NCBI RefSeq assembly: GCF_003704095.1
Contig: NW_020844892.1
Coordinates: 186,001-250,000 of the forward strand
Length of the DNA stretch: 64,000 nucleotides
Direction: 5' to 3'
Origin: Pocillopora damicornis
Lineage: Eukaryota
Each line of letters opens with the position of its first letter. The first letter of the stretch is position 1. Under the pieces are notes generated by a model. It did no database searches and was not told where the DNA came from. It saw only the letters and a list, made by a program, of their open reading frames with translations. Shown here piece after piece: positions 4,840 to 64,000 of this stretch. Made by a program: the position numbers and the translations under genes.

Positions 4840-22365
<17,526 letters not shown>

Positions 22366-23595
22366 GTACTAATTTAAACGATTCGGTTGTGAAATCTGAC
22401 CACTGTCTCTTTCGTAATGCACGTGACCTAACCAGGCCAACCAGGGTATGCTCGTTCTTCTAACCATTATCACGCGGAAAAAGTTAAAAAAATGAATCAT
22501 AAGCAGTTACTTATTGACGAACGTCAAGAGTGGCTTCTCTTTTGAAATGGCGGTTATGCTCGACAAGGCTTCTTGAGCCTGCGTTCTTCTGGCCATTATC
22601 ACAGGAAAAAAGAGAAAAAATTCATGATAAATTTAAAAAGAGATATTAAAATAAAATAAACAAGGAAATAAATGAATGAATATTCACTAAAGGCTTACCA
22701 TAGGCGAGTGGAATGAAAGGAGATGGAGAGGACAACGCGCTTCGTAAAGAGACCAAGTAAAGGCTTGTTCTTGAGTATAGCTTCTGAGCGCAACTGATAA
22801 CTTTATAGAAATAAGATGGTGGACTGTCAGAGGAACTTCAAATCCCTTAAGAACTGTTACAAAAACAAGGTGAATAAAGACCATGTGTAGCTTCATTACC
22901 CAAAAAGTGTTTTTGAGATGAAAATAACCATCTGAAATGTTTTTCACATACACCTAAGGCTCTTCAAACAAAGGACTTACTGAAAATTATTGCATCCTCC
23001 TATCTATCAAAAAAATTTAGGCTGTACATCTAAACACCATGTCGACCACCATGTTTGATCCTATATGGGCTAATATCTCCACGATACACTACGAGGTAAC
23101 TACGAGGACTACGAGGTACCCCTTAGGTTGCTCTGAGATTTGTCTGGTCTGACGGTCTGGGTCCCCCTTAAGCCAGCAAGAAAGACCGCTGCCAAATTGT
23201 GACGTAGTAGTAAGGAGCAAACTAAGCTTGTCGTACAAGGCTGAAGCCGCCCCATAGGGTCTTCTACGATTACGGTTGGCTTCAAAGTATTGGGATCGCC
23301 AACTGATCGAATACGGCTTTTAAACGGTGGAGGATCAGAAAGGCGTGAAACTTCTAAGCAGCTGAGACCTAAGTGCGGAGATGAACTACAAGTCGAGTGC
23401 CAGAGTGGATTATTTTCTTTTCGCAACGTTCTTCTTGGCTTCGTTATATTCTAAATGTGTGTAACTTCGTTCAACATTCGAAATTAAGTCCTCTCGCGGC
23501 TGAACCGGTGAACCTTGCTTTAGAGCAACAAGAGGAAGAAAGAGGTATAGTAAGAATCAAGAGAAAACTCGAGAATTTGGTGAAAGGCATTTCCA
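22366..23595. promoter_or_regulatory. Putative bidirectional promoter and 5'UTR region between ALLC and the SH2-C1-ART gene
   Basis: The two start codons are divergent and 1.23 kb apart. CpG is visibly richer than in flanking introns. A triple ctacgagg repeat lies at ~23089-23118. Confidence 0.5.
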
Positions 23596-40600: not shown

Positions 40601-43600
40601 ATTTTTTGTAGCGAAAAACAGCTGGTGAGAGGAGGAGAGTTCATAGCTCACCCTGGTGTTTAAGGTGCTATTTGTCTTTTGTAACACGGAGCATCTGCTC
40701 TTCAACTCATCTCTTTGCATCTCCATAAGCTTGTTGTTACGTAGGAAATCGTTTCTCTCTGTTTCTACCATCCTTCCTTTTCTGAGCAGGTCATCTCGTT
40801 GATTCTCAACCGCTTTCATTTTTTCGATCAAGTTGTTTCGATCTTGTTCCAGGACGTCCATTTCTTGTAACTGAGCCTGAAAACCAGATAACAAATTACG
40901 CATGGAGTGGCTCCACGACATAAAGGCTACAAGAAAAACAAAACAGTTGATCGATGGACACTTTTAAAGAAATTTTATACATACCTGTAGTATTTGAATG
41001 CTATGTTCCAGTTTCTTAAATTCTTTCTCACTTTTTTCCAACTTCTTCACCTGCAAAGAATGTCGCAAAAAAACAAAAAGAAAAAATGAAACTAATCCAT
41101 AATCGGAAACTAAGTGAGGTCAAGTGACAAGAAACATGACTATTTAGATTATTGGAACATCCGCAAGATGAACAAGATTGTTACCTTTTCACTTAGCTCA
41201 AAGTTCTGTTTTTCCATTCCACTGTATTTGGTTTGCAACTCGGCCAGTTCTTTCTCCGCACCATGTGTACTTTTAAGCTGGTTCTTTGAAAAGGAAAGAA
41301 CAATCCAAAATTAGGCGCAAAAGTCGCTGGTGTTTCTGTTTTCTAAATCACGCGTGTTATGGCAGTTAAGAAACTGAACCTGTAAATTCATGTAAGCTGC
41401 TTCCATTCTTTGTCTCTGTCTCTCTGAATTGCTGGCTTCCGCTTTCCATTGTTCAATCTACAAGGTAAGTATCGTGAATCATAACATGCATGACGATACA
41501 CATAGAAATTGCTATGGAAATACTCAATAAAAATTCCTCTAACACTTTCCCTACTAGCAATAATAAAATAATCAGTCCTGAAGTAGAGCGAAAGTGCACG
41601 AAATTTGGAGAACACTGTTCATATAAATAAAGTCATTTTATTTAAACAAAAAAATAAATGTTCCTCACCTCGTAGTTCTTTTTATTTATTTCTCCAATCT
41701 AAAAGAATTAACGGAAAGAAAAAAGCAATTAAAAAAGATACAAGCAAAACCACGACTCTTTAAGTAGCGTTTTAAAAACAAACAGAGGATGCTAAGTTAA
41801 AAAAGTTCGAAAGATACAGCGGGAAAACAAAGATAAGCAATAAAAGTAAAAATATTAACATTCGATCTCACCTTAGTAAGAAGTTCTTTTTCTTTCTTTT
41901 GATTCTGTCGGAGAAACATTTAAAGTAGATATTATTGTCGAACGAATTTTTAAGGGAAGATCAAATGTCAAATTGACAGACAAATGGTCACCATTTTAAG
42001 ATGACAGAGCTAAACCATCTTATTAAGCATTCTACTTCATTGTTATTTACCTCTTCTTTCAAAAATACCACATCTTCATCCTAAAACAGGAGTGCAAGAG
42101 AAATAAATCGTTTCTTGAAGAAAACGCCTGGCAGTCAAGTTGATTGAATTACATGATATGTTCAGAGTAACACAAGTATACATACATAGAAACATGTCAT
42201 CACCTATTATATTATTCTGCACTACGCTTATTAAACATAATTATAAGATCGTGAGGAAGAGCATCTTGGCCAACCACGCCAGCTTCCTAAAAAAAATCGC
42301 TTATAGTAAAAGAGTTTTTGTATCTATTAGTTTAACAAACAGGGGTGTTGAAGGTTCTCTTTCTATGCAAGTCAGTTAAAAAATCTCAATTCTATTTTTG
42401 TGATATTTAACATAAATTCTTCTTTTAATTACTTTTATAACAATTTTTATAGCTTTTTATTTTTTCCTTCAGTTTTAATATTATTAACATCCCAAAAGTT
42501 AAATCTAATTCATGCTTTTAAACAAGAGAAATCAAAACCCAGGTTAAATTGCCATCCTGGATTACGCGTGTATGATCTGAACGATCATACAGAACTCCGG
42601 TTTCGGTGAAAAGTCCCTGATCTGTACCATCTTTTGACATGGAAAAGTTCGCCTTTTTGTCCTTTTCCAAAGATAGAGCAAGGGTGTGATTACCCTCTAT
42701 TCATCCAACTTACTGATAAAAATACATGATTACAAAAACGGTTACCACATACCAAGATTCTCAGTTCACGATCTTTTCGTTCAAGCTGCAAAAGTGAAAC
42801 GGAAGAAGAAAAGAATGATAATTTAAAGAAAAAATCCATTTCATGCACAAGCTGAAACATTTTGAGGTAAAATAGAGATCGTGCTGGGTTAAACAAAGGT
42901 ACTTACCAGAGACTGAGTCTCCCGTTCAGTTGCTTCGGTCTGTTTAGAAAGCAATTGTTTCCATTAGGTGACCGAATGCACAAGAAAAAGCGAGTTTACA
43001 CAACAATTTTCTTAACATGCACTAAAGATCCCATGCAATACTGAATACGGTGGTAAAGAAAGCCTGGCTGAAGTGCCAAGCTCAGCGTATATGCAAAAGT
43101 ATTAGTCTTATTAAGTTTGAAGACGGAGTTCTAAAACATGAAACGTACCTTCAAGGAACGTATAACATTTTCTTTGTTCTGAAAGTGGTAAACAGAACGG
43201 AATCGTATGTAAAATAATCCATGATAAAGGAACAAGAAAAATACCGTACGATAGTAATTAAACTAAGTGGAATTCAGTTTTGTCTGAAATCATATGGGAA
43301 AAAAAAACAGAGATTTCAAAATAAATGTATTGAAAAAAATTAGTCGACTTAAATTAGCTATCTTTGGTCAAGCTCTATAAAGCTTATCGCATACCAGTTA
43401 AACTAATTTTACTTGTTTCACATTCAAGGAGGATTCAGGTAAAAAACTCCCTAGGAGGAAATGAATTTTGAGTGGCCAGTCTCGCGCTCTGATAAACTCC
43501 AGCTCTTCGACATACCTAAAATGCCTAAAGGCTGAATACTTCTATTACAAAACCATTATCAGTTGCCGCGGTATAGCTGAGGCTAATGCTGGTCTGTTGA

Positions 43601-46600
43601 GACGGAAATTGCCAAAAAGAATTTGACTGACTGACAGTGAGTACAGTAGTAATTAAAAAGTTTTTTTTCCATTTAACTCTTAAAAAAAAATTGGGCGCTT
43701 CCTTACTTTAAGCTGCCTCTCCAAGAACCCAATCTTCTCGTTAAGCGCGTCTATTTCACCACTATTGATCAAAGCGGCCCGGTTAAGTACAAATCCCCGA
43801 GGAGGAATGATTCCATCCTCCTCATCACGTAACCTCTGGGGCTGCATCGACGAAGTCACATTTGAATTTGCATATGAGACCACTGGTTGGTTTAATGGTC
43901 CTAGTTCACGCTTCGGCAAAAGGAGTCTTCTTGGTCCTGGAAGTACCCGAAGAGGAGCCTTGGTTTTAGAGTCATCAGGTTTTATAGATCCTAAACTTGT
44001 GGGCCGCCTTCCAGATGAGTCGGTTAACGACGTAGGCTCCTCGATCGGATAGATTCCACCCAGCTCGCTAGGGTCTGATTCAAGGACCAACGTAGTTTCC
44101 TCCACAAGCAAAGGAGATTCCATTCGGGAAGAAGATTGCGACACCTCAGAGGTGGGTTTATTTTCTGAGTGAAGGCGCTGTCGAGATGAAGCCCGGAGAG
44201 TAGCTGCATCTCTAGGTGGAGAAGAGTCACTATTCAACAACACTTCCAGTCCATGAAGGACGGGAGGCGGAGACTCCGTGAAATCTGGTGGTGGTTCAGA
44301 CGGGAGGGGTGGTGGAGAGGATTCAGGGAGGGGAGGGAGATCTCCCTCATCGTCTGAACCAAAGGTGACAAGATCACCTAATTCTGGTCTGTCTCTACTA
44401 CCTTCCTCTAGAGGAACTGAATCCTTCTCTTCTATATAACGAAGATCTTGAATACGTTGGTCGATAATATCCATTTGGGTGTCCAGATTCCTTTGGGAAA
44501 CCATAAGCTCTGGTTCAGAAATGAGGTCATCAGAGTCGACAGAACTTTCGTTATGACTGGGCATTGTATTTTCAAAGTCTCTTATTAGCGCTGAATAGTC
44601 CATTGGATCATCTTTCCCACTGAAAACTGCACCTTTCTTGTAACGACTTTGAGTTGATGGCTCAAACTCTAAACGACTGTCGCCAAGGTAGCGTATTTCA
44701 GTGGCAACAGTTGAGCGGACCTGAGGTGCAATGGTCTCCTCAATATCGCCTGGTATCGAACTAAGCACGTATTGAGAGTGTTTGAGACTCCTGGCTGCTA
44801 TGTCCTTAGAGGACTCCACACAATCGGTCTGTGTTTCCTCGTTTAATCTCTCAGTGTTTTGCCTGTCCTGGGAACAGAAAGGAGAACTGTATCAAATACT
44901 GCAATTAAGTCATAGGTGCCCACTTTCCTCATTACAATCCCTAGTATCCCTTTGTTGTTTAACAATTTTTATGGTATCTCACATGAACAGTGGCACAAAA
45001 ATATCATAGGATGTTTTTCCCCGGACATTACTTGGTCTGTTGAGCGATTAGTTATTCCGGCAAGAGCAAGCCCGAGGAAAACTGAGGGCTTCGAGGAACA
45101 GATAATGGTCGAGGAAAATATCTGAGCATATTTTATCTCCTAACAGAGTGCAAAACTTGCGTATAGTGGCCTTTAAATAAGTTTTTGCAGGGAAGGGGAC
45201 AACATTTACCAACGTACTCAGTTTGATTCGCAGCTCCGGTTTAATCAGCAGAAACACAACAAAAATGAACTCTTTAAAGCAACCTGGGTAGAGAGTCTGC
45301 ACTAGCACAAGGTTTGCTTCTAGGTTGACCCCAGTTAGTATTTCATATGCCCAAAATTCTGTGGACATGGGCTTTAAGGTGAAAAAAAATTAAAATGTCC
45401 AGTGTGATGGATCGGTGGTAGGTTATGAACGAAAAACAAACTAAAAGAAAACCAACAAATCAAACAAATAAACCAACAAAAAGCCAGAAAACGAAAACAT
45501 AATAAAAAGCATGGTTATTAAAAAAAAAAAAAAATCAAGTGCAACTAGAGATTAGCTTAAAGGCCTCCATTAATATGGAAAAAAAAAGAAATTTTTAATC
45601 TCTCGGGTCCCAACAGGAGATTACCAAAAAGTGAAAAATGATCCAGCAATGGCCCTACAGCTAACCCAAGTTGATACTTTCTCTCAAATCACGAATTTTG
45701 GTTGTTTTTTAATGGTATACCAGTACTCCGTCATACTGGACGTGACTTTTTCTCGGTGTCCTCAAGTTTTCAGTCGGTAGAAGGGCTGGTTTGGGTCAGT
45801 CTTAAGGCAAACCGAACTCTATATAGTTAATGTAATAAGAACTCTTTACGGTATCTAACCCAAGCCAGTGTTGTAAGACTTTATAATGAAGATCAGTACC
45901 AGGTAAATATATCCAGTGTTACATTATAGAGCGCGAACGTCTTCTGTCACCTTTTTGCATTTCCATATTTTAACAGATTTGTTCAAGAAATTGTAATAAT
46001 AGAAAACGAATGAGCCGTTCGACCCGGTTTTTTTTTTTTAAAGAAAACGGGCACCAACATTTTAGATAATGACATATAGGAAACTTCTCGAATTATCATT
46101 ATTACAATAAGGACCTATACTACTCCTTGCATTGCATGTACAGTCTGGTAAAATTGCTCATTTAATACGTTTGACATTCTATAATTTGTATGAGCTTTGT
46201 TCACAGAGTATTCAAGTGTTTGCGAAGTTCTCATACAGAGATATCCTTTCTCATGGTTCTAGGATCGGCTTTACAGAGTATTGCTTTTTATAACTGCTTC
46301 TAAACAATAACCAGCCTACATGAAGTTGAATGTAAAATGAACTCAGCGTTTGTTTGGCTTGGGTGTTCTGTTCAAATATACTTGTGTTTATGTCATATAA
46401 GAACGGTGATCGCTCATCTTCATTCTTCATGAGTATGTGATTTCAGAATAAACAGAACAAGATAGGGAAGAAAGCAACATCCAACAGAATACCACTACAA
46501 AGTAGGAAACCTTTCTGAGAAAACTTTGCATTTTGATGTTAAGGTTGCACATAAACATGCTGAAGACCTTTGTTAGCTGCAGATCAAGCCCTTGACTTTT

Positions 46601-49600
46601 GAATTATATGAAATCACCAAGTTAAAGAAATATCAGTGGGTCGTAAAAAAATAACAAGAACTGAACAAAAGAAAAGAAACTAAATAAGGAAGAATACCAA
46701 ACCTACTATGTTGTTTCCGCTGTGAAATTTTATGAAATGTTCGGTCGCTTGCAACGCTAGTTTGTGGCTCGAACATTAGCATAATCATCCAGAACTAAAT
46801 TATGCAGGGCAAATTTATTCGCTGTTAGGAATATCAGTAAACAAAGACAATTTTAATCATAACGAAGACTATTGTCCAAGTTTTAAAACAGCTATAGCGG
46901 AAGGAAATACATGTGTACACAACTGATGGGAGGTCGTTCTGGACAATGAATAATACCACTGCGGGTGTAATCATCGAACAAAAACAGTTTGGGAATTGAA
47001 AGGAATACTTCTGAAAATTTACAAACATGGATGTTATTACCTATCCTGTGTGGCTGACTGTTTTGTCAGATTTTTTGGAATCGGAGCGGCTAAAATAAGC
47101 GATGAAGCCGCTGGAAGAATGGGACCCGCTACCCTCATATTCACCAAGTGCAAGAAAACCGTCCGTTACGTGGGATAGTTATTATTAGACTTTGACGACG
47201 AATGTAGACGAAAATTTATGAGACATTTCATTGCCGCACGTAAATAAGCCTATTTATCAGCGGTCTTGAAATGCTCTGTTTGTGGGATCGATCTTTAACT
47301 ATTAAATCAGAGACAGCTTATAAAACACACTTCAGGTGCAACCAAAGCAGCAAGACGAGAGCGTTCCAGGTCAGTTCCAGTCTTTCGCTAAGGCTTGTGA
47401 TCGGGTGAGCAACACCATTTCACGCACGCCTACTTTTTCGCTAGTTTCCACTAACTCAGAGAATTTCACAAAAGCTCACGGAAGAACCGTCGTCACAAAA
47501 AGCCTTTTTCTCTCTCGAAGTATTTACAACAATGTAATAACAAAATAACTAGTAGCTCATAAAAATATTGATAGCAGTTATCATAGGGAATTATTATCCT
47601 GACTTGTGAACTGAGCACATCCATAGGAGTGCTTAACGCGCGCAGAGAAACTGAGAAACTGGAGCGCAAACGTTTTTTTTAGACGCTACAGGTAGAGCAG
47701 ATCTTTGGTCTACAGGCCCAAACACTCACATTACAGCCAATGGTTGATGCGAGGGTGCGTAAAAGCAACGGCAGGGGAAATGTTGGCATTTCATAATTAC
47801 CTGTATTNNNNNNNNNNGGGCGGGGGGAATGGGGGAATATTAGAACATTCAAAACTCCTACCTGAACTGTTCTCCTTAGTTCTTTAAGTTCTTCGCAAAG
47901 TCTTCTGTTTTCTTGTTTCAAATTTTCAAGCTCCTGAAAAGTGTCATGAACGAAGACGATTACAAAATTGTTACTCTTTAGGTGCATTAAATGCCCACAG
48001 TTTTGCTGCATGTGGTCAATATCTAAAGAAAGCAGGCCATCAAAGACCAGATGAAGCTGGTCCTGTCAATACTTTAGTGACCTGATCATGTTAATACTTC
48101 AGTAACCTGACTTCATCAAAGTCAGGTTAAAAGCCCCGTAATAGTGAACAATCACAGGATAGCACCGACTAACGCAGACGCATTGCAAAGACGTTATTGA
48201 AATTCGTTACATTTTAAATCAAATGACACATGCCCTGTTTAAGGGCAAATTATGTTCAAGTTCTCGAGCAAGATTAATCTTATTCCAGGATACAAAAGTT
48301 CATGTTAAAGGATCGTCTTTGTACTGCAGGTGAGTAATATGGCTTTATTACTGTAGTTTCGTACATTATGCAACATTTTATGACGTTTAGGATAACTTAT
48401 CTCTTTAAGCAGAACAGGAATCTTTATCTATCGACAGTTAATAAATTATGATTTACTTTTGCTATGTTCTCTGGTATGGGTGAGTTGACTTCATTAATTC
48501 CCCCTGGAATGCGTGTTATATGCTGTATGGGTTTGATCACTGAGCACGGTGTGTCACCAACATCTGATTGCTCTGGTCCGTCAGCCTTTTAAAGCAAGGT
48601 ATAGCGGCATTACTTTACGGTTGTCTTATTTTGGTCACTTCCTGAATAATTTCTTAATTCTTTGATAGCCATTATATGATCGTCTCGCAAGGCCTACACA
48701 TTGCATAATAACGAAATTACTTAATGCTGAGAAGAGGGTGAAGACTAAACGATGGTTCACAGGACGACATAGGTATGGCCACAGCGGAGCGTTAGTGTTC
48801 AGTATAAGTATCAAAGAACAGACGTTTCCATAACCATGAGCGTGTAATGAGGGCGCAGCAACACTGGTGAGATAAGAGTAATGCGAGCATGACTGAAATT
48901 TAGAAATTTTACAAGAAAATGATGTCTGAGTTATTCTTTAGTATCTTTAGTTTAAATATTGTCTTTACTGCTAGTTCTGTAGTGACAGCGATCACTAGCT
49001 GAATTCTTCAGATAAATTTTTAAAGTTTTTGTTAACCCCTATATGTATTAAAGTTTACTTTGATGTTCTTTTTATCAATGGCACCTAGCAGCCAAACATT
49101 ACCAACACATTACCTGTTCAAAGTAATGACCCAGATTGTTCAATTCATCACGCGGGGTAGCCATTCCCGACGACACGTGACTTTCAAGGTCACATGACCC
49201 AAGAACACTTTCCACCTCTGATGAAGTCAAACCAAAATCCTGTACTAATAGCAGTCGAACCTAGACAAAATTATTTTTCTTGGTTTTACAAACAGTTGAT
49301 TTTCATCGATTTAAGTTCAAGTACTGAGGTTACTTCTTGTTACCTTTCGGTTGTTTATTTTTTTTATCTTTAGCACATAATGTCTTTATCTTTGGCACCA
49401 AATTTCTAATAAAAGTACTAAGCTTACACTCAACACTTGTAAGTTACAAAAATGTTTAGAAAGCATCGTTGTTGGATGGAAACTTCAATATGGCGGACAG
49501 GTCCTCAAAAAGGGATCAAATGAAAGGGCAAAATAATTGACTGCCACAAGTTTGCATTCATCCCTTCAGAACTTGGTTTGAAAGAAATTTACTCTGGACC

Positions 49601-52600
49601 ACACCTTTCCAAGTTGTTCAGAGGGATCCATATCTGAAGAAACGTCTCGGTCGTTTTTCTACAAAACAAAATAGAGAAAGTAGGAAAAAGAACAGGCTTT
49701 GCAGAATGGAAAGATTAAAAGTGTTTCTACCCCAGCATATTACACATCTGTTCTTTGGCTGGTGAAAAGAACGTGAGGGTGGTTTCTATGTGCGATGTCT
49801 TAAAAATGCAGATTCTGTTCCACATCAAAAGTATCCCAGCTCTATCTCTTTCTAAAACTCTACAAATACTGCAAAGGTTAAATGTTTCTGTGATTCGGCC
49901 CTGTAACACCAGGAAAAGTGTGTAATATTGTTATTTGTGCTTCATTTAGTCTTACTTGAAATACAATCAGATTGCAGACCCTACCTTCTCCGACTGCAAA
50001 ATATCTATTCTTGCTTTCAATGCTGTATTGGATTCGTTCAGTGCTGCAATTGTCTAAGTAAAATGACAAAATTAAAAATCGACATTCAGTCACTGTTAGA
50101 TATCATTAAATGCAAACAAATTGTGCTTTACGAGAAGAAAAATGAAGGTGAGTTAGACTTAACACTGCCTCAGATTTAATTAGTCTGGATCTTGTGTCTC
50201 GTTAGAACTTGCATTCTACTTTCATTGTTTCAACTGCTGAGGCTCTACGAGTTTGCACACTTTCTTTGCTGAAAGAGATTTTATCCAATCTACAAAGAAC
50301 ATGTTAACCCTTTAACTTCCGACATCGCATCAGCAATTGTCCTTACAGTCTGCCATTCCAATTCTTATAATGGTAGTTTGAAGAATTTGGTATTGGATTA
50401 ACTAGTAATCCCCTAGTTTACATTTTTGTTTTTTCTCATCTCTTGTCTGCTTGATAATGTACAGATATTATAAGGAGAAATTCTGTCTTGGTCATTCCTG
50501 GGAGTTAAAGGGTTAACTTTAACATGATTTAATCACTAGAAAGGTGAGGTGGATGCGCCGGGCTCATAATGACTAATGGTATTCTGCTGTTTCCATTTAT
50601 ATGTTTCCATATATCTACCGTAAGCCGAAATGTTCGTGAAAAAAATTAAAGGTTTCGATATACTTTGCATCTTAACATGACATAAGCAGGCTTACAGTAA
50701 AAAGAAGACATGAACATTCACCAAAATGTTAACCGCTAAATATCAAAGCTATGTGATTGAAGAGCTTCAACTGAAAGCACCACGAATTTTAATTGAAAAC
50801 AATTCATTATCAAAGTATCGCGTGATTTTACCTTATCTGCTTCCTTCAGCTGTTCTATCTTTTTCTGAAGAGTCTCGAATTCCTCCTCAGACAAGCCCTT
50901 AGCCTACAAAATGAAAACAAAACCGCGTGTTTTAAAATTCGTTATTTAAAGGATAATACATTAAAAAGAACCACGATAGAGTTCATCTGTGACGTTTACG
51001 ATAAAGGAAAATGTCAAAAACTAAGTGTTGTTCATTGATTTTGTCCCCCCAACCCCTCTTCTTATTCTTAAGGTGGCTGGGTATAGTTTTCTTAAGCTTC
51101 TACCAGCTATATTTTATATCAGAATTCCTCTTTGCAGATGACCGAGTTTTACAAGAAAAATGCAAGGCCAATGTAAACGGCTGAAAGTGATAGGGTTTGC
51201 AATAACCTCTCCATTATTTTACCCAAACTTCACTTCACTACTAGAAGTTATTTCGTACGAGATATTTTGAAATTGAACCCCTGACATTCGTCTTAAGTCA
51301 ATTTCCATTAAAAGTATCTTGACAAGTTTTTTTTAAAAATCAAATTATATATCTCCCATCAGAATACTGTCCCATTAAAATTTGGTCTAAATGAAAATTA
51401 CATTCCAGGCCCCTGTTCCGAGTAAAATTGGAAGAGAGGTAACTTCACATTTGAATCTGATAAAAAACATTCGGTAACCAACACAAATATTCAGAAGAAC
51501 TCAGTTCTCGCTTAACTCTTCAATGGATTGTCTCCTCTTTTGAAAAGGGTTGATGGGGGACATGAGGTAGAAAAGATATGCAACCACATATATAGAGATA
51601 ACAGACCGACATAAAGATCGGTTGCAACTCAAACTAACACACCTTTGTACTGTACAGGCTTTCAATCCTTTCTCTCAGCAAAATGTTTTCGTCTTCAAGT
51701 GTTTTCATGTTCTTGGAAAGGAAATAAAAAATCATCGATATTTGAGAGAAAAAGTTACTATGAACTAAGAAATGTGCGCAAAACCAACATCAAGGTTGAA
51801 AAGAATTATTCTGTTGGGGTGAATTAGTTAAGTCAGTAAAGCAGTCATATTTGACGATCTGGTTACGAACTCAGAAATCTGAGGATATACTCAAAAGAAA
51901 ACTATAAGAAAGTTCCCGTGACTCACAGAAGTCGTGTCTTCCAGAATTTTGATATTTTCTTTTAACACTGAATTTTCCTCTTCGAGTCTTTCAACAACCT
52001 GAAAGATCAAAGCAATATCACAGTCAATGTAGCACACTTGACACTTTTGTAACTTGACGACACTTTACTTAATTACTTAAATCCTGTCACAGCGGATACG
52101 AACTCTCCGTGACAATTTTCCATTCTCAATTAGCGATATCGCAACAACGTCGACATAAACCACAAAAAGAAGATCGTTATAAATTTAATTATCAGTTGGC
52201 TCCTGGCCACAGTCGCGATAACAATAGAATTTTGTGTGTCATATTCTAGTCACCATCCCTTCAAAACTCTCCTGAAAGCACCAGTTTTCTTCTCTAATAG
52301 CCCCACCTCACTAGTGAAGCGTTCCCCACCTGTACTTACCCTTCCCGTAGAATGTTCCAGATCCTGTATCTTGTCCATGAGTTGCTCGTTTTCCAGTCGT
52401 TCTGAAGTCTGAGAATAAATAAGAATGCATTTATTGTATTTATGCTCGAGAGACGCAGGGACGATTCGCTTCAAGGAATTCTATGAAGCTGGAAACTCAT
52501 TTACAATAACCAGAGACTCTTCCAACATCTGTACTTTTTCTGAGAGCTCTTCATTTTAATAATTTTCTTCTTTTTCTCTCTCTTTCCAATTTCCTCCGTT

Positions 52601-55600
52601 ACTTCGAACTGCCCTTTCAAAGCAGCATCTTTACTTCGAACATATGCAATATTCTGAAATTAACAAAAGTCGAAAGTCAAAAAGCGACAGGAGGTAGAAA
52701 TTATTTTTCTGTTCGTGAGCCACAGCTGCAGCGATGAAGAGATTAAGCAGCAAAGAAAACTGTGTTAGTCTTTATTACTTGGACTTTAATTTTTCTGTTG
52801 TTATTCAAACTGTTTTTTTTCTTTCAGTGTGTGAACTGTAGCCGACATCAAACTATGATACTGACTGAAGCATCTTCCAAGAACTGTAATTTATCCTTGA
52901 GCATTTTGTTTTCATCTTTCAGCTTGTGTAGTTTCTGAAACAGAAAAGGTTGATAACAATAAGACTTTTGTCGAAAAAGAAAACGGCTCTTTTTACTTCT
53001 CAACTTCATAATGTTTTTGTATGTAGTGTAAATAATTAGTAATCAATCTAAGAGTATCGTGCACTTACTGCCTTTGCAGAAATCTACGAATCGTTATGTA
53101 CCCAGACAAACCAACCAGTTCATAGAATGACTCGTTATTAAAACAATTTTTTTGCCCCACTGAAAAAGGGTTCCTACCTTGCTTATCCATAACGTGAACA
53201 ATTACACTAAAAATAAAAAATTGCATACATCATTTTGTTCCAGGTCCTCGATCTGCTCTTTTAACAATGTGTTTTCACAGACCACATCATCCTAAAAACA
53301 TGAAAGATGGTCAATTCAAAGAGTGCAAGCGAGTCACACGGACATTCAACTTCTTCACTGCCACTCCTATGGACACACAAGGCGACTGTCAAGTCGCCAT
53401 GACACGTCGGACGTATAGGTCGCGAACTGTTGGGAAACCAGTCCTTGATAATCTGCAATATCAGAAATCACTTACTGCGGATGCCTTGAGAGCCTCGATT
53501 TTTTCGTTGAGAGTTTCGTTCTCCCCCTCAAGTTCTTTCACTCTCTGAAATAAATTAAAGGTAAGTAAGTGGAAACAGACAGGCTGCTGCATTACATTCA
53601 CAAACTCAGTATTGAAGAACTCTAGTTATTTTTTCCACCCCAGGTCGCCTCGATTTCCTCACTCGACTATATCTACAAGCCAAGAAAGCATAGAAAGATC
53701 GCTCTTTCACCTCGGGTTCAGCTGATAGCATTTCTACTTGTTGCTTTAGATAATCATTCTCCCTTTGAAGCTCTTCAGTACCCTGGAAAAATATCAAAGG
53801 GCAAATTTCTATGATTAAAATATTTACTTCTACATTCCACTGACGGTCAGGATAACTACATCTTAATTTTTGCCGAAGATTCAGACAACTGACCCTAACA
53901 ACAGATTGGTCGACAGCAATTCTCTTATTGTCTGGTGTCTTACGTCTAATGTCTCGATGTTATGTCTATAATAGTCTACATGTGGATCTTCAAAACTGAA
54001 AAGTTTGAAAAATTAAGTGGAAGCCTCTTTTCCAGGAATCCTAAATAATGGATTGTGTCCTGGCGACATACGTGTTAACACAAGACCAAAATTGAAGCTC
54101 TTTTCTTACCATAGTTTGTTCAAGAGTTTTTATCTTTTCCCTTAGCTCTTCATTTTCTTCTTTGGTGTTCTTTATCTCTGCATCTGAAATCTAAGCAATT
54201 CTAAAATTAACTAGGGACCACTTAACGTTATCGACTCCAAGTGAACAAGAAATATTCATAATGAGAGTTTGAAATAAAATGTTACCATGGAAGCTTCTTC
54301 AAGAGCTTTGACTTGTTCCCTGAGTTTGTCGTTCTCCTTCTCTACATCCTTCACATCCTAACGGTGAAAGAGACAGCATCAATTAGCTTCATATGTGAAC
54401 GTAACCATGACATCTTGCCCCAAGCATACTCACTGCTAATTCCTCAAGAATTTTCATTTTCTCTTTGATCAATGCATTTTCCTCTTCTCTATCTTCCAAG
54501 GACTACGACAAAATAAACAAAAGCAGGTAATAAATTATAAATATCTATCAATGCCGTTATTATTATTAAGATCGTGATGTCGATGATAGTCACCGCCGAA
54601 GTAGAGGTGCTAGCCAACGACACTGAGGTCAATAGTTGTTTTAGTATATAATTAACCAGTGAGATAATATTAGACAAAAGATGATCTTAACTCATTTATT
54701 CCTACAACTATTACAATATATTCGGGCGCAATTTTCGGGCGCAAATCCCGCGCGAGTTGCTCAGGGGTGAAAAGAAAAGAATAGTCGACATTTGAGAAGC
54801 CAACCAGAGCTCGCTTACGAGGCTATCCACTGATTTAGTACATACAGATGATTGTTATCGCTTTAATCAACAATTAATATTATCATTAAGATCTTTGTCT
54901 TTATCAAAATACTACTTTCATCGTAATCATCACCACCATTATCGTCAACATGTTTATCATCATTACTGTCATTCTTATTATAATTATCATGTCACTACTG
55001 TTGAGATAAAGACAATTGAAGACGATGAGAAAAATAAGAAATGCCTTGGAAATTAAAAAAAATTGTTTAAAAATGCTTCTTTGACTGACGAGGTCTATTT
55101 CTCCAAGTATTTTACCAACTGGAGGCGCAAGTTGTCGTCACATTAAGGTTTTCTCAAGAAAGACGGAGCACAGCTACTGGTTGATTTAAGAAATAACCTC
55201 AACGTTACTTTCTGTGTATTTACCTGGACTTTCTCCTTCAAGAGGGCGCTCTTTTTTTCAAGTTCCTCTGTCTTCTGCAACATAATAAATTTTTACCATA
55301 AGAGTCAAACCAAACAACAAAGAACAGTCCCAAGATCTGTCAGACCTTGATACGATAAGCAATGTAAACTGTAAAGGATAAGATTAACTAACAACAAAGT
55401 TGGTTTCCTTTTTAACCAACTATACCACGCTCAAAGTTTACAGTGCCTTAGTCTAAAGGTTTTAATTAACCGTGCTATAGTTGGTTTAGAGGCATGTGTT
55501 TGTCTCATACTCGTGTTATTTATGTATGTCGTTGAGTGGCAAACCTAATATTTTCAGTAGAGAAATAATCAAGACATTCTATAGACCATTTAATGACTAG

Positions 55601-58600
55601 CAGAGTAACTGAACGCGTAAAAGTGTGACCTAAAGTTGATTCCTGTACCTCTTTCAGTTTCTCCCAGAGATTCCTGTTTTCTTCCTCGAGGTCTTCAGTA
55701 CCCTGTTGGAGCAATGTTTTTAAATGATGCCTTCATTTACCTCCCTAAATAGGCATCTCAGGTCCATGTATGAAAACATTTCGTTATAGTGGTTATACAT
55801 TGATCAATAAACCGACTGACTACCAAATTAACTGACTTTCTGAATACCTATCAAACTGCAGAATGACAAACGGACCAAACAAGTGACAGATTAATTGTCA
55901 GGGCTGACTGACTTACTGACGAACCGACCAACAGAACGGAAACACTGACTGACTGAAAGAATAAATGAATGGATAATGTACAAAAAAATTGAATGAATGA
56001 ACAGAAAAAATAAACGAACGAACAAACAAACAAATAGAATGAACGAATAAACGAATGAATAACTATTTGATTGACTGACTCACCTTTCCGCTTTCCAAAA
56101 TTAACAGATGTTTTCTGAGAAGTTCGTTTTCTTCTTCTAGTTCTTTTAAGCTCTGCAAATTTAAACACATCTACAAATGTCAAACTATTGCAACAAGAAA
56201 AAAAGCAGTGGATTCCAACATGTCATAAAGGATTTCCCACTGTTTCAAATCAACACTCCATAGATCAGGATTGACCCAACCATCGGGACCGAGAGCTTAC
56301 TTGTGATGATTCAGCTATAACGGTTATAAGGGTTCTCTGTTGAAGAAATTTACTCCAAAGTATTTCATTAAAAATAAAAGTGTTCCTCTTGTCCTCAAGC
56401 AAATCCAATATTTTTGGTGAAAAAGCAACTTGCCAATAATTGAACCCCATTTTCGAAAACAAATCTGACATATTTAACAATTATTCCTTGTTTAAACTGT
56501 CCACCATTAATTACCAGAGTATTACAAACAGTCGCGTCCAGAAAGCAAAATCGAGAGATTCTAGCTAATTAGTATGTAGAATGAGATTTTGTGCTTTGAT
56601 TCACAACTTCAAAATATAACTTTATGGTCTTTAACGCCATTTTCCCTCACAATCCAGGTTTTCCGGCGTAAATTTACGGGAGCATATTTGGGAAATGGTA
56701 CATGGTTAAATTTTGTAAGAAACTTCTGGCGTACTTTTGAAATTGCGGTGCGAGTATTTCCATGTTAAGTTCGTACCAAGAATAAAATTGGACTCGTGTA
56801 AGAGCATAATCGAAGTTTTTCCATCATAGGAGCGTCACAGTTGTTCGTACAGCTGAAAACAAATGATCGCTAAAACTTCGCTGAAAGAAAGATACTGTTG
56901 ATTCACAAACAAATACGACCGTGAAAACAAGGATTATCAAGTAATATTTGTATACTATGTGATACCAGTGAGAACAATAATCAAAAAGCCAACCTTGATG
57001 TCTCCTGTATCCTCTATATCGCTGTCATCTATTCCTTGCCTTATGGCCATCAGATTCAGTAACTCTGAATCCTTTCTTTCCTTCAAAAACTTGTCAAACC
57101 GGTTCACAGCACTACTGTCAGGAGGCATGTCCGTCAACACGTCTCTGCCTTCGCCATCCTGGGTGGAATTAATTGCTTCGTCTGTTTGGTTGAAAACGCT
57201 GTCACTTCCATTTTGAGATGATAACAAAGGGTTATCCGCTGTGGAAAAATATTGCAACAATCACACCCAAGAAAAAAAATTATCCGTAGGACTAAGGCTA
57301 TTAAAATATCCAAGCCTTCAAACATAAGCAATTTCTATACGTTTGCTCTCATGCAGGATAGAGATGGTCAAACGAGAAGAGCTGAGTCTGACCTATAATT
57401 ACGACGTGATTCCACCCATGATCACGAAAACAGTGCACCTTTTGCAGGTCTTGCCAGTTTTTATGAAAATTGCATACGCTCGGCTCAGGCAGTGTAGAAG
57501 AGAACCGGAAAACACATAGGCCTGGTTTACAAGCACGAAAATCAACAAAAAGGAAAGCAAACAAACAAACGAAAAAGTTGAATAGCCATACGCATTGGGA
57601 TTTCAAGGATGACATTCATGTTTCACCACCAGGTACAAACAACATTGTTGCTGCATGATGCTTTCATATCGTATCCGTTTGCCAACGTTTGTACCCAAAT
57701 TGGTGAGACAAAAAGGTAACGAGGCCAAACCTGTAGTTGCACACGTTTGAGTGTACAGGTGTTTTTGGGGAATTTCTAACTAAACACTGATGAGGTAAAA
57801 TACACAAAACACAGCCTGTTGAAACCTCATCTTGACTGACGACATATACCAAGTAAAATCCCGACAGAGGAGAGCCTTCTGCAAATAATAGAATAATAAA
57901 ATAATCTCCTTTGCAGCCGATGTTCGGTCGGGGAGACAGCGCGTTGCGTGAGGAGATCAAACAACAGCTGCGAAGGAGACTGCAAGCAAGAAGGCTTTTT
58001 CACCCATCAAGACGTAGCCCTCTGTAACTATAACACTAGACGCACTGTGAGTTTAACGCAAAGTTATTAAAGAGGAAACGTCTGCGATTTACACACTGTA
58101 TACCTTCGGGAAATTCTGACTGCTCGTCTTCTGCAAACTGGACTGGTGGCGGTGAGCTGATGGTGAAAGTGGCCTTTTCAGGAGGAGGTGGCAGTCGGGA
58201 CAATTCTACCGCGAAACTGTTATTAGGTTCGGTAGCCACTTCATCTTGTACAGGATTGGAATCACTGCGATTCTTCACAACTACTTCCACTGGATTAAAG
58301 CCTAAGAAAAATTGGAGAACTCCGTATAACAAATTGGTTTACAGTGAAAAAGCAATTTAGACAAGACATCTCATTTGCAAAAAAGTGAAACTGAGAACTG
58401 GTATATGAAATAGAAGGTGTCGTTAGAACGGGACTCATATTATGTCCTTTGATAAGATCGGCCTGACTTTCAATACAAGTCAAGTTATCAAAGATTCTTA
58501 ACCCCTAAACTCCCATGAGTGACCAAGACAGAATTTCTCCTTACAATATCAATACAATATCAACCAGATAAGTGATGAAAATTAAGAAAAATATCAATTT

Positions 58601-61600
58601 GGGGATAATTAGTTGATTCAATACTAAATTCTCTGAACTGACACGATAAGAATTGTATGGTTGACAGAAAGGAGAATTACAAATTTGATCTAGGTGTTAA
58701 AGGGTTAAATAGTAAGTCAAAATGTCTGAGACTTCTGGCTCTAACGCGCTTGATTTTGTCACGTCAATCTGATATTATTGTGTGCAAAGATGGTTTTTTA
58801 TTTCTTCTTCATAATTCCTCCTTTGCCTTTCATTCCATATCATTTTTTGGTCCAAAGTATTGCGTAACTTTGAGAAATAACTTGAACGGTATTCGATGTA
58901 TTTACATTTCTTACGTTTTTTTTTCGGAAATGGAGAGGTTACCTGTATCTTGCCGGGCCATGTTAATAGCAGACACGAACAATGGCATGTCCACATCACG
59001 TGGATGTATTCCTCTAAACCCTGACAACATGGCGTCGACATCCACAGGATCACATTGAACACCAATGTTTTTGAAAGAAGCACCTGAATGCAGTATATTT
59101 GTTTCACTGTTGGACGAGAAGCATTCATGTAAACCGTCAGAGACGTGTGCCATGTCGATGGGGATGTTAGACATTTGTGCCCTCTCTGGGACATGCTCGG
59201 GGGTCACTCCTGAGTTCGGAAGTTCGACTGCTGGAGGTGCATCTATCTCATCAGTTTGTCCCACTACAAGATGTATGGGATTGAAACCTGTCGGAAAATA
59301 ATGTTCGAAAGCGAATAAGCGAGACAAATTGATTGCTTTGCAAGATTAAAATATTCTTGTCAAAAGCTTGACAATTCCATTCCAGACAGAATACGTTATG
59401 TATTCATATTTTCATTACAGGTTTAAACAAACGTGTTTATGGCTTTCGATATTTGAAATTTATACCCCTAAAATTCAAAAGCTACCTTGTGCAATAAAGT
59501 TAAGACAGTAGAACGCTGAAAGTGCATTTAGTGCTTTGATTAAGTTACTTAAAGCACATGCAGGCAGCAAGGACAGAAATATCGCTTAAATGAATGATTT
59601 CCTCTAACTAAGAAAAGCTTAAACCACTCGTGGCCCCAGGATGCGAGTCACAGTATTTTTATAAATGTACAGCACCTGTAACTATTTATTTAGTTAAGTA
59701 AAGATATGTCTATATTTATTCAATGGATTAGCTCTATATTTGGACTACCTCGATTTCTGTAGCAGCGATCAGCGTGTGTACAGTTATCTATTACTGTGTA
59801 TGTTCATGAGTTCTTGTTATATATCCAAAAATCAAGGTTTTAGAAGGAACTTAGTATCATAAGCACTATCAGTAACCGCTGGCTTTTAATACGTAATCGC
59901 TGCAACGTTTATAAATAAACTCTTAAACTTGAAAGTAAAATCAGTGGCCATTACGGCAATTACACCCCTCTAAGCTTAACACACTAAGTTCATATTCACT
60001 TTTCAGACCGTTAACATCACACGCTTATTTCAAAATTATCCTTTATCAAACAATGCCTGGCGTTTACTTTGCAATTTCACGTCTACTTTACAGTACTTGA
60101 CGTCCAACAATACCATGACGTATCCTTGAATGTTAACTGTATTTTGTGTGACGTTCATCCATACCGGGAAGTTATTTACATGCACGTTAAAACCAAGGTA
60201 AATTCATGCGTGGGAAAATGATGTCATTTTTGTTAGAAAGGTATTTACGTAATAAGTTGGATCACTTTAAACATGCTGATCTTTGATTGTGGCAGATCAG
60301 TATTGCCCTGCTACCGGGCCATGCTCCTTCCATGAAAAGTCAGTAGAATCAGCTGCATGCATGAACTTGAATGGGTACACAAACAGAACACAAACCTCCT
60401 GGTTGTCTCATCTTTAAGGCTGTCACAAACCACGAAGGAACATCCACCCCTTTCTCTTCTGCTTCCTTGTTAAGCTCCTCCAAAAGCGAACTTAAATCCT
60501 CCAGGGTACATTGTACACCAAAATCAGTCTGTTCTCGACGTGAGTGAATTAAACCAACACCATCACAGGTGTCATATATCCCAAACTGTTGCAAATCAGA
60601 AAATGTTAGCTCGGTCATGACACAAGCATCTCGACACTGATTCTCCTCGATATCTACGTCTTCGTCCTCGTCCATGATAAATTCAGGCTCGTCCAAAACA
60701 GGTAGATAATCTAACTCTGATTGCAAATTCACGAGTGTTTCAGCTTGGAAATTGTCATGAACAAATTCATGAAACGAAGGCGTAGCTCTCTTTTCAGACC
60801 CACTGCCCGCTTGATCTTCGAGATCTCGGATATCTGCTACTGTGAGTTCCGTTTCTGTACCCTTATCATCTTTCTCGACTTCACCATCACTTGAAAGTGC
60901 CATTGTACCATCAATATGGAACTCTCCCAACGTGTGAAGGTGGTCAATATCAGAATTTGTCAATTTTGTCATGACTTCTTTGTCCTCCTTGGGTGCAAGC
61001 ATTCCTGATAGTTCACTACCATTGTCATTAATACTTTTCAAAAGATTTTCCGCTTCCTCTAAGTATTCCAAATCGGCAGTTGTGAGGTCCGTCATTACCC
61101 CTGCATCTTCTGAACTAGCGAGTTCTGCAGCCCCAAAAGAATCCTCTTTGCAAGAAAGTTCTACTTCTTCCAGGTACTGTAGTTCAGATGAGCTGTCCTC
61201 TTGTTCAATTCTAACCCAAGAGGGGTCTTTTTCCTGTGGTTGCTCCCGCTGTAGTCTCTCATACTCGTCCTCCATACACTCTATGGAGGCCAATGTCACA
61301 CTTGTCATGATCTCTGCAGTCCTCTCGCTATTCATGTCCTCAGATCTTCTATCAAGCTCGTGATTATTGTAAGAACTTTCTACACCCATTAAATAATCCA
61401 AATCGTCAATCGCTAGTTCAGTCATGACCTCCTTCTCTTCCGTTTCTTGACGTATACTACTTTCGTCTTTCAAATATTTCAAATCTTCAGTTGTGATAAC
61501 TGTCATAGACTCCTTCTCAACCTTCTCCACAGAATGTAACTTTCTAAAGTCGTCGTATTCCACCAACGTTTTCTTGTAAAGAACTTCTATATCTTCAAAA

Positions 61601-64000
61601 TACTCGAGAATGTTGGCTGTCAACTCGGTCATGGTGTGCTTATTCTGCATATGAACAGACACTGAGGTAGACCTTGAACGCCGTCTCCACTTCGGTGCTT
61701 TACTTTCCTCGTTTTCAGTGGGAGCTGATTCCAGTTTTCCGCGAACTTGAAACTTCGTATGCGGAGGGTCACTCCTATGTTCTTTTCTGTCTATGTAAAA
61801 CAAGCATTGCATGTGTGCAGAGTCAACATCCTCCAGACGTTGTAGATCCAAAACCGATAAGTCTGTCATAATATTTGCGTTTTCTTTCTTCACTGTGGCA
61901 GCTTCAAGCCCGTCGTGTTTATCAGCAAGGTATTCCTCCTGAGCTGCTTTAACATCTTCCAAGTAGTTCAAATCGGATGCAGTTAAGTCTGTCATTACTT
62001 CAACGCTTTCTTTGTCTACAATTCTGACGTGTNNNNNNNNNNNNNNNNNNNNNNNNNNNNNNNNNNNNNNNNNNNNNNNNNNNNNNNNNNNNNNNNNNNN
62101 NNNNNNNNNNNNNNNNNNNNNNNNNNNNNNNNNNNNNNNNNNNNNNNNNNNNNNNNNNNNNNNNNNNNNNNNNNNNNNNNNNNNNNNNNNNNNNNNNNNN
62201 NNNNNNNNNNNNNNNNNNNNNNNNNNNNNNNNNNNNNNNNNNNNNNNNNNNNNNNNNNNNNNNNNNNNNNNNNNNNNNNNNNNNNNNNNNNNNNNNNNNN
62301 NNNNNNNNNNNNNNNNNNNNNNNNNNNNNNNNNNNNNNNNNNNNNNNNNNNNNNNNNNNNNNNNNNNNNNNNNNNNNNNNNNNNNNNNNNNNNNNNNNNN
62401 NTTCAAATCAGATGAAGTCAAGTCTGTCATTACTTCAACGCTTTCTTTGTCCACAATTCTGATGTCTAATTCTTCGTGTTTATCAGCAAGGTATTCCTCC
62501 TGAGCTGCTTTAATATCTTCCAAGTAGTTCAAATCAGATGCAGTTAAGTCTGTCATTACTTCCACGCTTTCTTTGTCCACAATTCTGACATCTAATTCTT
62601 CGTGCTTATCAGCAAGGCATTCTTCATGAGCAGCTTCAACATCTTCCAAGTAGTTCAAATCAGATGAAGTCAAGTCTGTCATTATTTCAACGCTTTCTTT
62701 GTCCACAGTTTTGATGTCTAATTCTTCGTGCTTATCAGCAAGGCATTCCTCATGAGCTGCTTCAACATCTTCCAAGTAGTTCAAATCAGATGCAGTTAAG
62801 TCTGTCATTACTTCAACGCTTTCTTTGTCCACAGTTCTGATGTCTAATTCTTCGTGCTTATCAGCAAGGCATTCCTCATGCGCTGCTTCAACATCTTCCA
62901 AGTAGTTCAAATCAGATGCAGTTAGGTCTGTCATTACTTCCACGCTTTCTTTGTCTACAATTCTGGCATCTAATTCTTCTTGTTTATGAACAAGACATGC
63001 CTCATGAGCGGCTTCAACATCTTTTAAGTATTTCAAATCGGACGCAGTTAAATCTGTCATTACTCCCACACTTTCTTTGTCTCCAATTCTGAAATATAAT
63101 TTGTCCTCCCCATCAACAAGGCATACCTTATGAGAGGCTTCAACACCTTCCAGTAGCTGTGGATCCGAAGCAGTCAAACTGTGGACACTTATGGCTCCAT
63201 ATCTGTTGGCCTGTGGTTCCGCATTTCTATCAGGAGTACATTCATTTCTTGGCCCTTTCACAGCCTCCAAGTATTTTAGGTCCGACAGAGTGAAATCAGT
63301 CATGGTTTCAACACTGTGCTTCTCAGCAAAGCACACATCATTAACCGCATCAACGTTTTCATAGCACTTAAGATCCGAGACGGTAAGATATGTCATTGTC
63401 TCCACAGTTAACCTTTCCACTGAATTCTTTTCATTCTCAAGTTCTTCGCTTTTTCCTCGCAAACTACTAATCTCCACATCATATCTCTGCTCGATTCCCA
63501 TGTCAGCAATTGTTTTGTTTTCTTCCCTACCATTTAAACGTTCCCTGTGTAATTTCTCTTCTTGCCCCCAATATTCTATATCATCAGAAGTTAGCTCTGT
63601 AGCTACACACTTGTCTACTTTGGGATACCTCTGGTGAAGTTTTTCAGTTTGATGTAGAGGCTCGAGGACGGGAATGGTTACGTCTGTCGAGATCATCTTG
63701 TCCATTTTCTCTGTACTGAACTCCAGGAGACCATTTGCCCCTTCTAACAAATGGTCGAGAATCGAAACTGTCAGATCTGTCGCAGTGTACTTCTCTTCTT
63801 TTCTTACCTCTTCGTCTGCACCAGCTCTCGTCTTTTGTCTGTAAAGCTCTTCTACTTCCTCAAGGTACTGAAGGACGTCATGTGTAATGTCTGTCATGCT
63901 CTCTTGCTCCCATTTTTCTACCATCGGTAGACTTTCCTCCTGACGAGCAGCATTCTCAATGTAAAAATCCTCAAGCTCCGAAAGCTCGACAAACGTCAGT
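28500..64000 (-). CDS. Giant RIM-binding-protein-like scaffold (acidic repeats, coiled coil, SH3-SH3-FN3-SH3-SH3); 5' end lies outside the window
   Basis: About 52 GT-AG exons join in phase: >64000-60396, 59287-58943, 58301-58104, 57238-56994, 18 mini-exons in 56152-47862, 44867-43707, six 30-33-nt exons in 43178-41669, 41457-41380, 41283-41185, 41050-40985, 40876-40652, 40275-40082, 39868-39823, 39679-39623, 39493-39281, 38341-38009, 37201-36976, 36576-36512, 36148-36079, 35466-35137, 33836-33706, 33608-33555, 33375-33250, 32840-32817, 31919-31785, 31476-31393, 30904-30785, 30166-30056, 29184-29101, 28547-28500 (stop). The SH3 domains carry the RIMBP-type ALYDYDP..SP....EL and D/NG(F/Y)(Y/F/L) signatures. 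A single transcript is inferred, not shown. Confidence 0.75.
29101..31919 (-). CDS. Exons encoding the two C-terminal SH3 domains of the RIMBP-like gene
   Basis: FVALYDYDPFKSSPNQNPAAEMSFKEGD..DGYF.G|LKNRKGLIPSNFIEE and MVALYDYNPEVQSPQDNPDSELPLKKGQ..FGDM|RADGFYQAEVNGELGLVPGSFL. Confidence 0.9.
33250..33836 (-). CDS. Three exons encoding a single FN3 domain (RIMBP-type)
   Basis: PSAPSNF....MLVGWTLP.MD..GRSSG..VKGYK|IYANDD....SPYMAK|ALVEGL...F.IKTV..NG.SS. Confidence 0.8.
34581..34615. repeat. (AAT)n microsatellite
   Basis: About 11 AAT units. A similar run lies at ~5928-5953. Confidence 0.9.
36512..38341 (-). CDS. Exons encoding the first two SH3 domains of the RIMBP-like gene
   Basis: FIALFDYDPHSS..PDLELKLKEGD..GDMDINGYLEADLNGERGLVPSLYV and LVALYDYDPF...QLTLKKGD...DANGFYRVFLNG|QTGFVPGQMV. 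Confidence 0.9.
43707..44867 (-). CDS. 1161-nt exon encoding a disordered Pro/Ser/Glu-rich segment
   Basis: Open frame of 387 codons with an AG acceptor and GTAAG donor, phase 0-0. Contains EETQTD and LPPLPESSPPPLPSEPPP. Confidence 0.85.
47862..56152 (-). repeat. Array of about 18 phase-0 mini-exons (51-72 nt), most encoding one L-E-x-E-N-x-x-L-x-x-K-I-x-x-L-E coiled-coil unit
   Basis: Examples: SLKELEEENELLRKHLLILESGK (56152-56084), DVKDVEKENDKLREQVKALEEASM (54357-54286), RVKELEGENETLNEKIEALKASA (53544-53476), VVERLEEENSVLKENIKILEDTTS (51998-51927), ELENLKQENRRLCEELKELRRTVQ (47933-47862). Confidence 0.8.
50304..50516. mobile_element. piggyBac-like MITE (TTAA TSD), same family as 13934-14128
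   Basis: ttaa-ccctttaacttcc ... gggagttaaaggg-ttaa. Confidence 0.85.
57902..57982. mobile_element. Very short MITE-like element
   Basis: Terminal inverted repeats tctcctttgcagc and gctgcgaaggaga. Confidence 0.5.
58498..58708. mobile_element. piggyBac-like MITE (TTAA TSD), inverted relative to the other two copies
   Basis: ttaa-cccctaaactccc..gaccaagacagaatttctcctt ... taggtgttaaaggg-ttaa. Confidence 0.85.
60396..64000 (-). CDS. Giant (>3.6 kb) acidic repeat-encoding exon, open to the window edge
   Basis: The frame is open from 64000 (LTFVELSELEDF..) to the donor G|gtttg at 60396. Degenerate (V/T/S)MT-x-LT-x-x-DL-x-YLE units occur throughout. Confidence 0.9.
61850..63090 (-). repeat. Near-perfect 126-bp (42-aa) coding tandem repeat spanning an assembly gap (N at 62033-62401)
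   Basis: Unit VMTDLTASDLNYLEDVEAAHEECLADKHEELDIRTVDKESVE, with at least 6-7 copies visible. Confidence 0.95.

Follow-up and report, generated by a model that had tools for sequence, protein, structure and literature searches.

The window, by which we mean the whole stretch of 64,000 nucleotides analysed here, contains on its minus strand a run of exons belonging to one gene, the long form of which would encode a protein of ~4,700 aa with an array of repeated units in its middle. The array lies in a giant exon that occupies 60396-64000 of the window and continues to window+1496 (G000:C1527:251496), that is, 1,496 nt beyond the window edge; its 5,101 nt include a 369-N gap at 62033-62401. The next exon, at 58943-59287, contains the motif NIGVQCD (59049-59069, also present in the Stylophora orthologue), and its acceptor is common to the long and the likely short isoforms. 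There follow two linker exons defined by RNA joints (58104-58301 and 56994-57238, together spanning 56994-58301), a series of short exons, mostly 63-72 nt, encoding E/K/L-rich coiled-coil-like repeats (47862-56152), and a proline-rich exon (43689-44867) with a canonical-looking NEETQTD at 44823-44843. A second coiled-coil region (39269-41457) was located by tblastn of the Stylophora orthologue and gives weak coiled-coil Pfam matches. The C-terminal part comprises SH3-1 and SH3-2 (36356-38344), a single FN3 domain (33250-33837) that exceeds the Pfam cut-off for Ig_RIMBP2, and the exons for SH3-3 and SH3-4 (29101-31919); the best matches of SH3-1 are the SH3 structures of RIMBP2 and fly RBP (E 7.5e-16).

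RNA contigs fix the bounds of the giant exon at window+1496 and 60396, within an open minus-strand frame of 1,715 codons that runs from window+1496 to 60352 and is interrupted by the N gap. The upstream joint is found in contigs of two of four runs, the other two carrying a one-letter difference, and a chain of 15 RNA joints connects the giant exon to the second N-terminal coiled-coil exon. The downstream joint, to exon 59287-58943, is bridged by contigs of three of the four runs, and from there RNA joints continue as far as 44867. For the connection with the first exon, and for all parts past 44001, the source is the orthologue rather than RNA reads; some of the short coiled-coil exons are inferred, others coming from RNA joints. 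A preliminary description of this DNA had drawn one giant exon at 58943-64000; the contigs show that 58943-59287 is a separate exon and that 59288-60395 is an intron.

The nature of the gene is best approached through its relatives. A profile search over 1.84 billion proteins gave 12 matches. One is the Stylophora pistillata protein XP_022782888.1 (isoform X11, 3,046 aa); it aligns to the locus exon by exon, mostly at 60-100% identity, which makes a related stony coral the likely source of the window, and it combines JAKMIP_CC3 with four SH3 domains and one Ig_RIMBP2 domain; the count of four SH3 and one FN3 is the same in the window. JAKMIP_CC3 reaches 50.1 bits in P0153 against a cut-off of 30.2, which the Stylophora orthologue passes; a single exon of our own gene scores 19.3 bits, under the cut-off. 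In addition to JAKMIP_CC3, coiled-coil-like exons flank the array on both sides. By Atlas features the N-terminus of the anemone protein matches JAKMIP1 clusters (0.92, but with only 138 of 256 features shared), and an Atlas search with the Nematostella protein returned scores of 0.83 or lower throughout, to be treated as leads only. When the N-terminal exon was used to search for longer proteins, one match was obtained among 3862 candidates. In the JAKMIP family an N-terminal coiled coil binds microtubules and kinesin, and JAKMIP1 binds kinesin-1.

RIMBP proteins, in the extracts of PMC7565545 relevant here, carry three SH3 domains and either two or three of the FN3 type; on a different contig of this genome, C2380, Ig_RIMBP2 finds a far stronger match (E 5e-29 versus 3e-4 in the present gene). 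With four SH3 domains, one FN3 and the better match elsewhere, the gene is therefore best read, from its sequence, as a JAKMIP/RIMBP-like paralogue (JAKMIP_CC3, four SH3, one FN3) and not as a canonical RIMBP. The earlier label of a RIMBP-like adaptor suits the C-terminus, with its SH3 and FN3 domains, but not the gene as a whole. Both the coiled-coil region at 47862-56152 and that at L011:734-3834 consist of runs of small symmetric exons (60-81 nt), which suggests that these regions, unlike the single-exon array, have grown by exon duplication.

Several other features share the window. An intronless frame of 468 codons at 23584-24990 (plus strand) encodes SH2 and C1 domains; its C-terminal part, for which Pfam and PDB searches gave no match, presumably resembles the ADP-ribosyltransferase-like C-terminus of NEURL4. 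A short repeat element at 58498-58708 and about 50400-50520 lies under very many RNA contigs and is likely a high-copy small transposon. A fragment at 1236-1595 (plus strand), with no Pfam match, looks like part of a Polinton-type element, namely its family B DNA polymerase, and at 15376-15837 (plus strand) there is a protein kinase fragment that scores below the cut-off.

A probable splice switch within the giant exon

The giant exon is entered in phase 0 and left in phase 1, and skipping of the whole exon was ruled out because it would shift the frame. A different route is indicated by the Stylophora RefSeq isoform X11, which exits the exon after its first 126 aa (2-3 units) and joins the next exon. 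At the matching place our own exon has an in-phase donor, AAG/GTGAGG, which lies outside the window at G000:C1527:251118, and a [KR]-G-[EK] donor signature is found in the same region in 22 of 24 homologues. Were both forms present, a contig would be expected to stop two bases beyond this donor, where the paths fork, and the X1 RNA contig stops on precisely that base, as judged from its length; this end occurs in one of four runs, the X6 contig ending 17 bases earlier, and the matching downstream contig start is equally compatible with intron retention. The evidence is good but indirect, with no RNA read seen to span the short joint. The internal donor likely removes all but 2-3 units, giving a short isoform that would retain these units and one Gln-Cys site. 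Contigs from X3 and X10 enter the giant exon from its 5' side and cover over 2,300 nt of it; the long form is therefore made. A likely choice between 2-3 units and the full array goes beyond the preliminary description: the array reported there is real, but 11 upstream units and the likely short splice form had gone unseen.

A second in-phase consensus donor, AAG/GTGAGT, is located within the giant exon at L005:5269 (G000:C1527:250269), and could, if used, produce an intermediate isoform of ~8 units.

Anatomy and conservation of the repeat unit

An iterated PSSM, with its threshold for unit calling taken from shuffled sequences, recognises 34 units in the giant exon, each consisting of a strand segment and a helix; 23 are anchored within the window. 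About six of the 34 are weak (4.5-12.7 bits), the N gap cuts one further unit, and the count excludes the terminal GVQC site. The consensus is x-K-x-[DSE]-[KVA]-[EG]-[VTI]-M-T-[DE]-L-T-x-x-D-L-x-Y-L-E, in which we number the Met as position 0. The preliminary count of about 20 sites or more is confirmed and exceeded, and the motifs that it quoted are all found, in frame, on the minus strand: DKESVEVMTD in five copies (62926-62955, 62800-62829, 62548-62577, 62422-62451 and 61987-62016), KHSVETMTD (63295-63321), NKHTMTE (61624-61644), EKEVMTE (61417-61437), DKEVMTK (60964-60984), DDKGTETE (60847-60870), DACVMTE (60610-60630) and DFGVQCT (60505-60525), together with the sites in the later exons given above. 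Its description of the array as regular applies to part of the exon: units of 42 aa (126 bp) form a young tandem block at 61987-63156 (minus strand), which the N gap breaks in two, and regular 126-bp tandem structure is restricted to 62402-63156, spacing elsewhere varying from 27 to 79 aa. Over all homologues the median spacing is 42 aa.

The unit array is conserved as far as a sea anemone, with unit counts of 10-44 overall. A 98% identical sequence without the gap (P0001) has 39 units against the 34 here, 22 ENA homologues (31-61% identity) have 17-44 each, and the Nematostella homologue has 10. At two places individual sites can be followed. The site that reads NKHTMTE here is KNTMT[D/E] in 21 of 25 homologues, which is the core of the verified LC8 site of myosin Va. 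The Gln-anchored DFGVQCT, which is followed by a conserved helix, stands close to the exon end as a [TVI]QC site in 25 of 25 homologues, with Q and C invariant (alignment A5), and resembles EDKGVQCE of gephyrin. The GVQCD and ETQTD of the later exons are present both here and in Stylophora.

No known family accounts for the units: Pfam placed none over its cut-off on the repeats, and the unit profile, searched against PDB sequences, gave nothing below E 0.65. One candidate relative of the array, the FN3 repeats of a cricket protein (P0151), was dropped as a chance match within folded FN3 domains.

A putative ladder for LC8

The central question is what the units do. We consider it probable, at about 0.6 and judging from sequence, that they act as a ladder of putative binding sites for the light chain LC8, as the preliminary description had proposed. 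The flanking residues, the Thr at +1 and the myosin-Va-like and Gln-Cys sites speak for this proposal, and so does the fact that no autonomous fold is predicted; the absence of the canonical Gln, found at position 0 in none of 512 distinct array units, speaks against it. The genome holds two intronless LC8 genes (L012 and L013 on G000:C787), 2.6 kb apart and 94% identical. A third, diverged LC8 match is found on C1208.

To avoid circularity, 195 distinct units were picked by helix pattern alone from 14 sequences, namely our own exon and 13 of the 31 homologues, chosen for diversity. Extracts of PMC3078936 give the flanks of the LC8 consensus as [D/S] at -4, K at -3, [T/V/I] at -1, [T/V] at +1 and [D/E] at +2. 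In the helix-selected units these residues occur at 66% (D/S), 26% (K), 67% (T/V/I), 98% (T/V) and 92% (D/E), each position being enriched ~4-7x over background. All five match at one register, a result equalled by 2 and 0 of 5000 random consensi, each scored at its own best register; the true order of positions is the best, 1 of 120 permutations reaching its score. The five most diverged proteins alone gave the same picture (1 of 5000 random consensi); with our own exon alone (n=15) the test was weaker, at 14 and 23 of 5000. A second test used position rules that we coded ourselves from the text of section 9 of PMC6607443: 17 positions fit, whereas 1000 shuffled sequences gave 0.8 on average and never more than 5, and we infer that the motif array is not a product of chance. 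Only 20 of our own 34 units, however, satisfy every flank rule, and 16 of the 34 have in addition an anchor residue known from binders; in Nematostella the count is 2 of 10. According to passages of PMC6607443, many peptides bearing TQT or another anchor fail to bind LC8.

The anchor itself is the difficulty. Once Gln at position 0 is added to the consensus, significance is lost (946 and 1533 of 5000 random consensi; 294 of 720 permutations), and Met occupies this position in 348 of 512 units. Non-canonical LC8 binders that lack Gln are described, among other places in parts of PMC3078936, and to accept Met at position 0 in the test is post hoc. The candidate sites that flank the array – GVQC, GVQCD and ETQTD – do have Gln at position 0, and it is conceivable that LC8 binds a few Gln-anchored sites only (GVQC twice, ETQTD), the Met array being a descended, entropic acidic spacer of drifting copy number. 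The lack of Gln in the array, the variation in unit number across homologues and the annotated isoform without most of the array are all in keeping with such a spacer, which nevertheless sits poorly with the conservation of the motif: Thr stands at +1 in 501 of 512 units, Lys never appears at position 0 despite being one substitution away from Met, and the orthologous columns 0 and +1 are conserved at 0.86 and 0.97 against 0.62 overall. These facts indicate selection on the motif, and we regard a spacer as improbable.

Structure prediction bears on a second explanation. AlphaFold (AF2) was run on 5.5 tandem units and on the final 420 residues, which are diverged; the models, built from shallow alignments of 16 and 19 sequences, show separate helices and no strands (pTM 0.18 and 0.17); many motifs fall in low-confidence coil, and long helices traverse some of them. 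The preliminary description had named an autonomous globular or solenoid fold of the repeats, burying the motif residues, as one of two results that would count against its reading. Given these models no such fold is seen: AF2, from the shallow alignments, predicts no compact or autonomous fold for the units, and neither AF2 nor the PDB profile search supports solenoid or globular packing of the repeats. The units could instead assemble by themselves, helices pairing across chains to form an acidic rod or spacer, perhaps dependent on cations, with the M-T-D-L-T segment serving as a cap or a short strand. The helices that pass through motifs would be at home in such an assembly, as would the exon's net charge of about -273 and the conservation of helix positions +3, +7, +8, +11 and +12, which equals that of the strand half. 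Left unexplained, however, are the ordered fit of -4, -3, -1, +1 and +2 to the LC8 consensus and a near-invariant Thr that stands seven residues before the helix core, and the absence of a predicted compact fold or of any PDB match to the unit profile better than E 0.65 also counts against self-assembly. It is unlikely, if somewhat less so than the spacer.

The third alternative is a different multi-copy partner, for example kinesin light chain, recognising D-L-x-Y-L-E as a Y-acidic motif, or another strand-binding light chain. Kinesin-1 binding by JAKMIP1, mentioned above, would suit it, and about half of the units have Tyr at +10 with acidic residues alongside. The Y-acidic peptides of JIP1 and TorsinA end in DIYLE and DYYLDD in extracts of PMC6214655, but the Y-acidic motifs described in those extracts are C-terminal and are bound in extended form, whereas the coral segments lie within the chain, have one residue more and follow a helical pattern; moreover, the least variable residues are found in the strand half. 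Of the three alternatives we hold this to be the least likely.

If the LC8 ladder is correct, its working can be outlined. Coiled coils would hold two chains in parallel, each strand x-[DSE]-[KVA]-x-[VTI]-M-T-[DE] would occupy one groove of an LC8 dimer, and the helix that follows would pair with its twin between the LC8 beads. With Met in place of Gln single sites would be weak, and binding would then need avidity; the Gln-Cys sites at the array end may nucleate the ladder. An acidic disordered stretch would in this way become a semi-rigid rod, its length likely switched by alternative splicing. At ~6.5-7.5 nm per unit – our own estimate, from about 3.5 nm per LC8 in KANK1 plus a helix – the rod would measure about 230-300 nm in the long form. 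It would join a JAKMIP-like end that likely binds microtubules or motors to an SH3/FN3 end that likely binds proline-rich partners.

A similar sequence occurs in a kinesin of Trypanosoma melophagium (P0150, XP_067191217.1), the tail of which has 16 near-identical repeats, mostly of 32 aa, at residues about 710-1225. The repeat core, N-T-M-T-D-L-A-A-T-D-L, is similar to the coral unit and also to the LC8 site of myosin Va, and the tail is possibly, by this resemblance, an independent Met-anchored LC8 ladder.

A broader proposal we put forward tentatively, as somewhat less than an even prospect: that anthozoans possess a JAKMIP-RIMBP hybrid in which one splice choice decides between few and 35-45 LC8-plus-helix modules, that the product is a ruler of ~250 nm and the most multivalent LC8 client among those met in our searches, and that its Met-anchored module, missed by motif predictors, was possibly reinvented in the trypanosome kinesin tail.

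Relation to known systems

Searches of the literature at title level found nothing on this gene, on the array or on a JAKMIP-ladder-RIMBP design. Known LC8 rods have up to about 15 dimers on irregular sites. If binding holds, what is new is a variant among multivalent LC8 clients: a regular module of motif and helix, in 35-45 copies and under a splice switch, would provide a clean test of how multivalency relates to length and stiffness; Met-anchored sites would become a class and not an exception confined to myosin Va; and JAKMIP end, ladder and RIMBP end would together define a cnidarian scaffold design.

At its two ends the gene can be compared with two families. Its first SH3 domain is closest to those of RIMBP2 and fly RBP, and its FN3 passes Ig_RIMBP2, as in the RIMBP/TSPOAP1 family, from which it differs in having four SH3 and one FN3 behind a JAKMIP_CC3 N-terminus. 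With JAKMIP1-3 (the Marlin-1 family) it shares JAKMIP_CC3, over the cut-off in the Stylophora orthologue, but the coral version is fused to the repeat exon and to a RIMBP-like C-terminus; vertebrate JAKMIP clusters, among those listed, measure 626-844 aa against the ~4,700 aa of the coral long form. Bassoon, in extracts of PMC2700376, is likewise a scaffold of very large size; it has three LC8 sites and a part in motor transport of active-zone material; it is a functional analogue only, and we claim no relation in sequence.

The closest precedent for the individual site is myosin Va. Among the verified sites of the 2019 set its DDKNTMTD was the only one with a TMT anchor; it has a low LC8Pred score and is thought to be rescued by its flanks and by adjacent coiled coils, as passages of PMC6607443 have it. 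Extracts of PMC3078936 show the same Met anchor, K at -3 and D/E at +2, and an avidity that arises from coiled-coil dimerisation (about 40 nM for a dimeric fragment), as we propose for the coral array; the LC8 site of myosin Va, going by titles cited there, lies on an alternatively spliced exon, as the coral array likely does. Myosin Va has one such site, the coral protein dozens.

For the array as a whole the precedent is KANK1, as portrayed by Walker et al. in parts of PMC12803091. Its linker L2 resembles the coral array in several respects: it is long and disordered, belongs to a cytoskeletal adaptor, lies beside a coiled coil and is rich in non-canonical sites; about 15 LC8 dimers bind sites that fail as single peptides, forming a rod of about 53 nm, and the cooperativity is credited there to short linkers. 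The KANK1 sites are heterogeneous and tightly spaced, whereas the coral protein has 34-44 related, putatively binding units about 42 aa apart; every unit brings its own amphipathic helix, and a single exon, likely subject to alternative inclusion, encodes them all. Across 42 residues, in place of the short linkers of KANK1, it is the helices that would have to supply the coupling.
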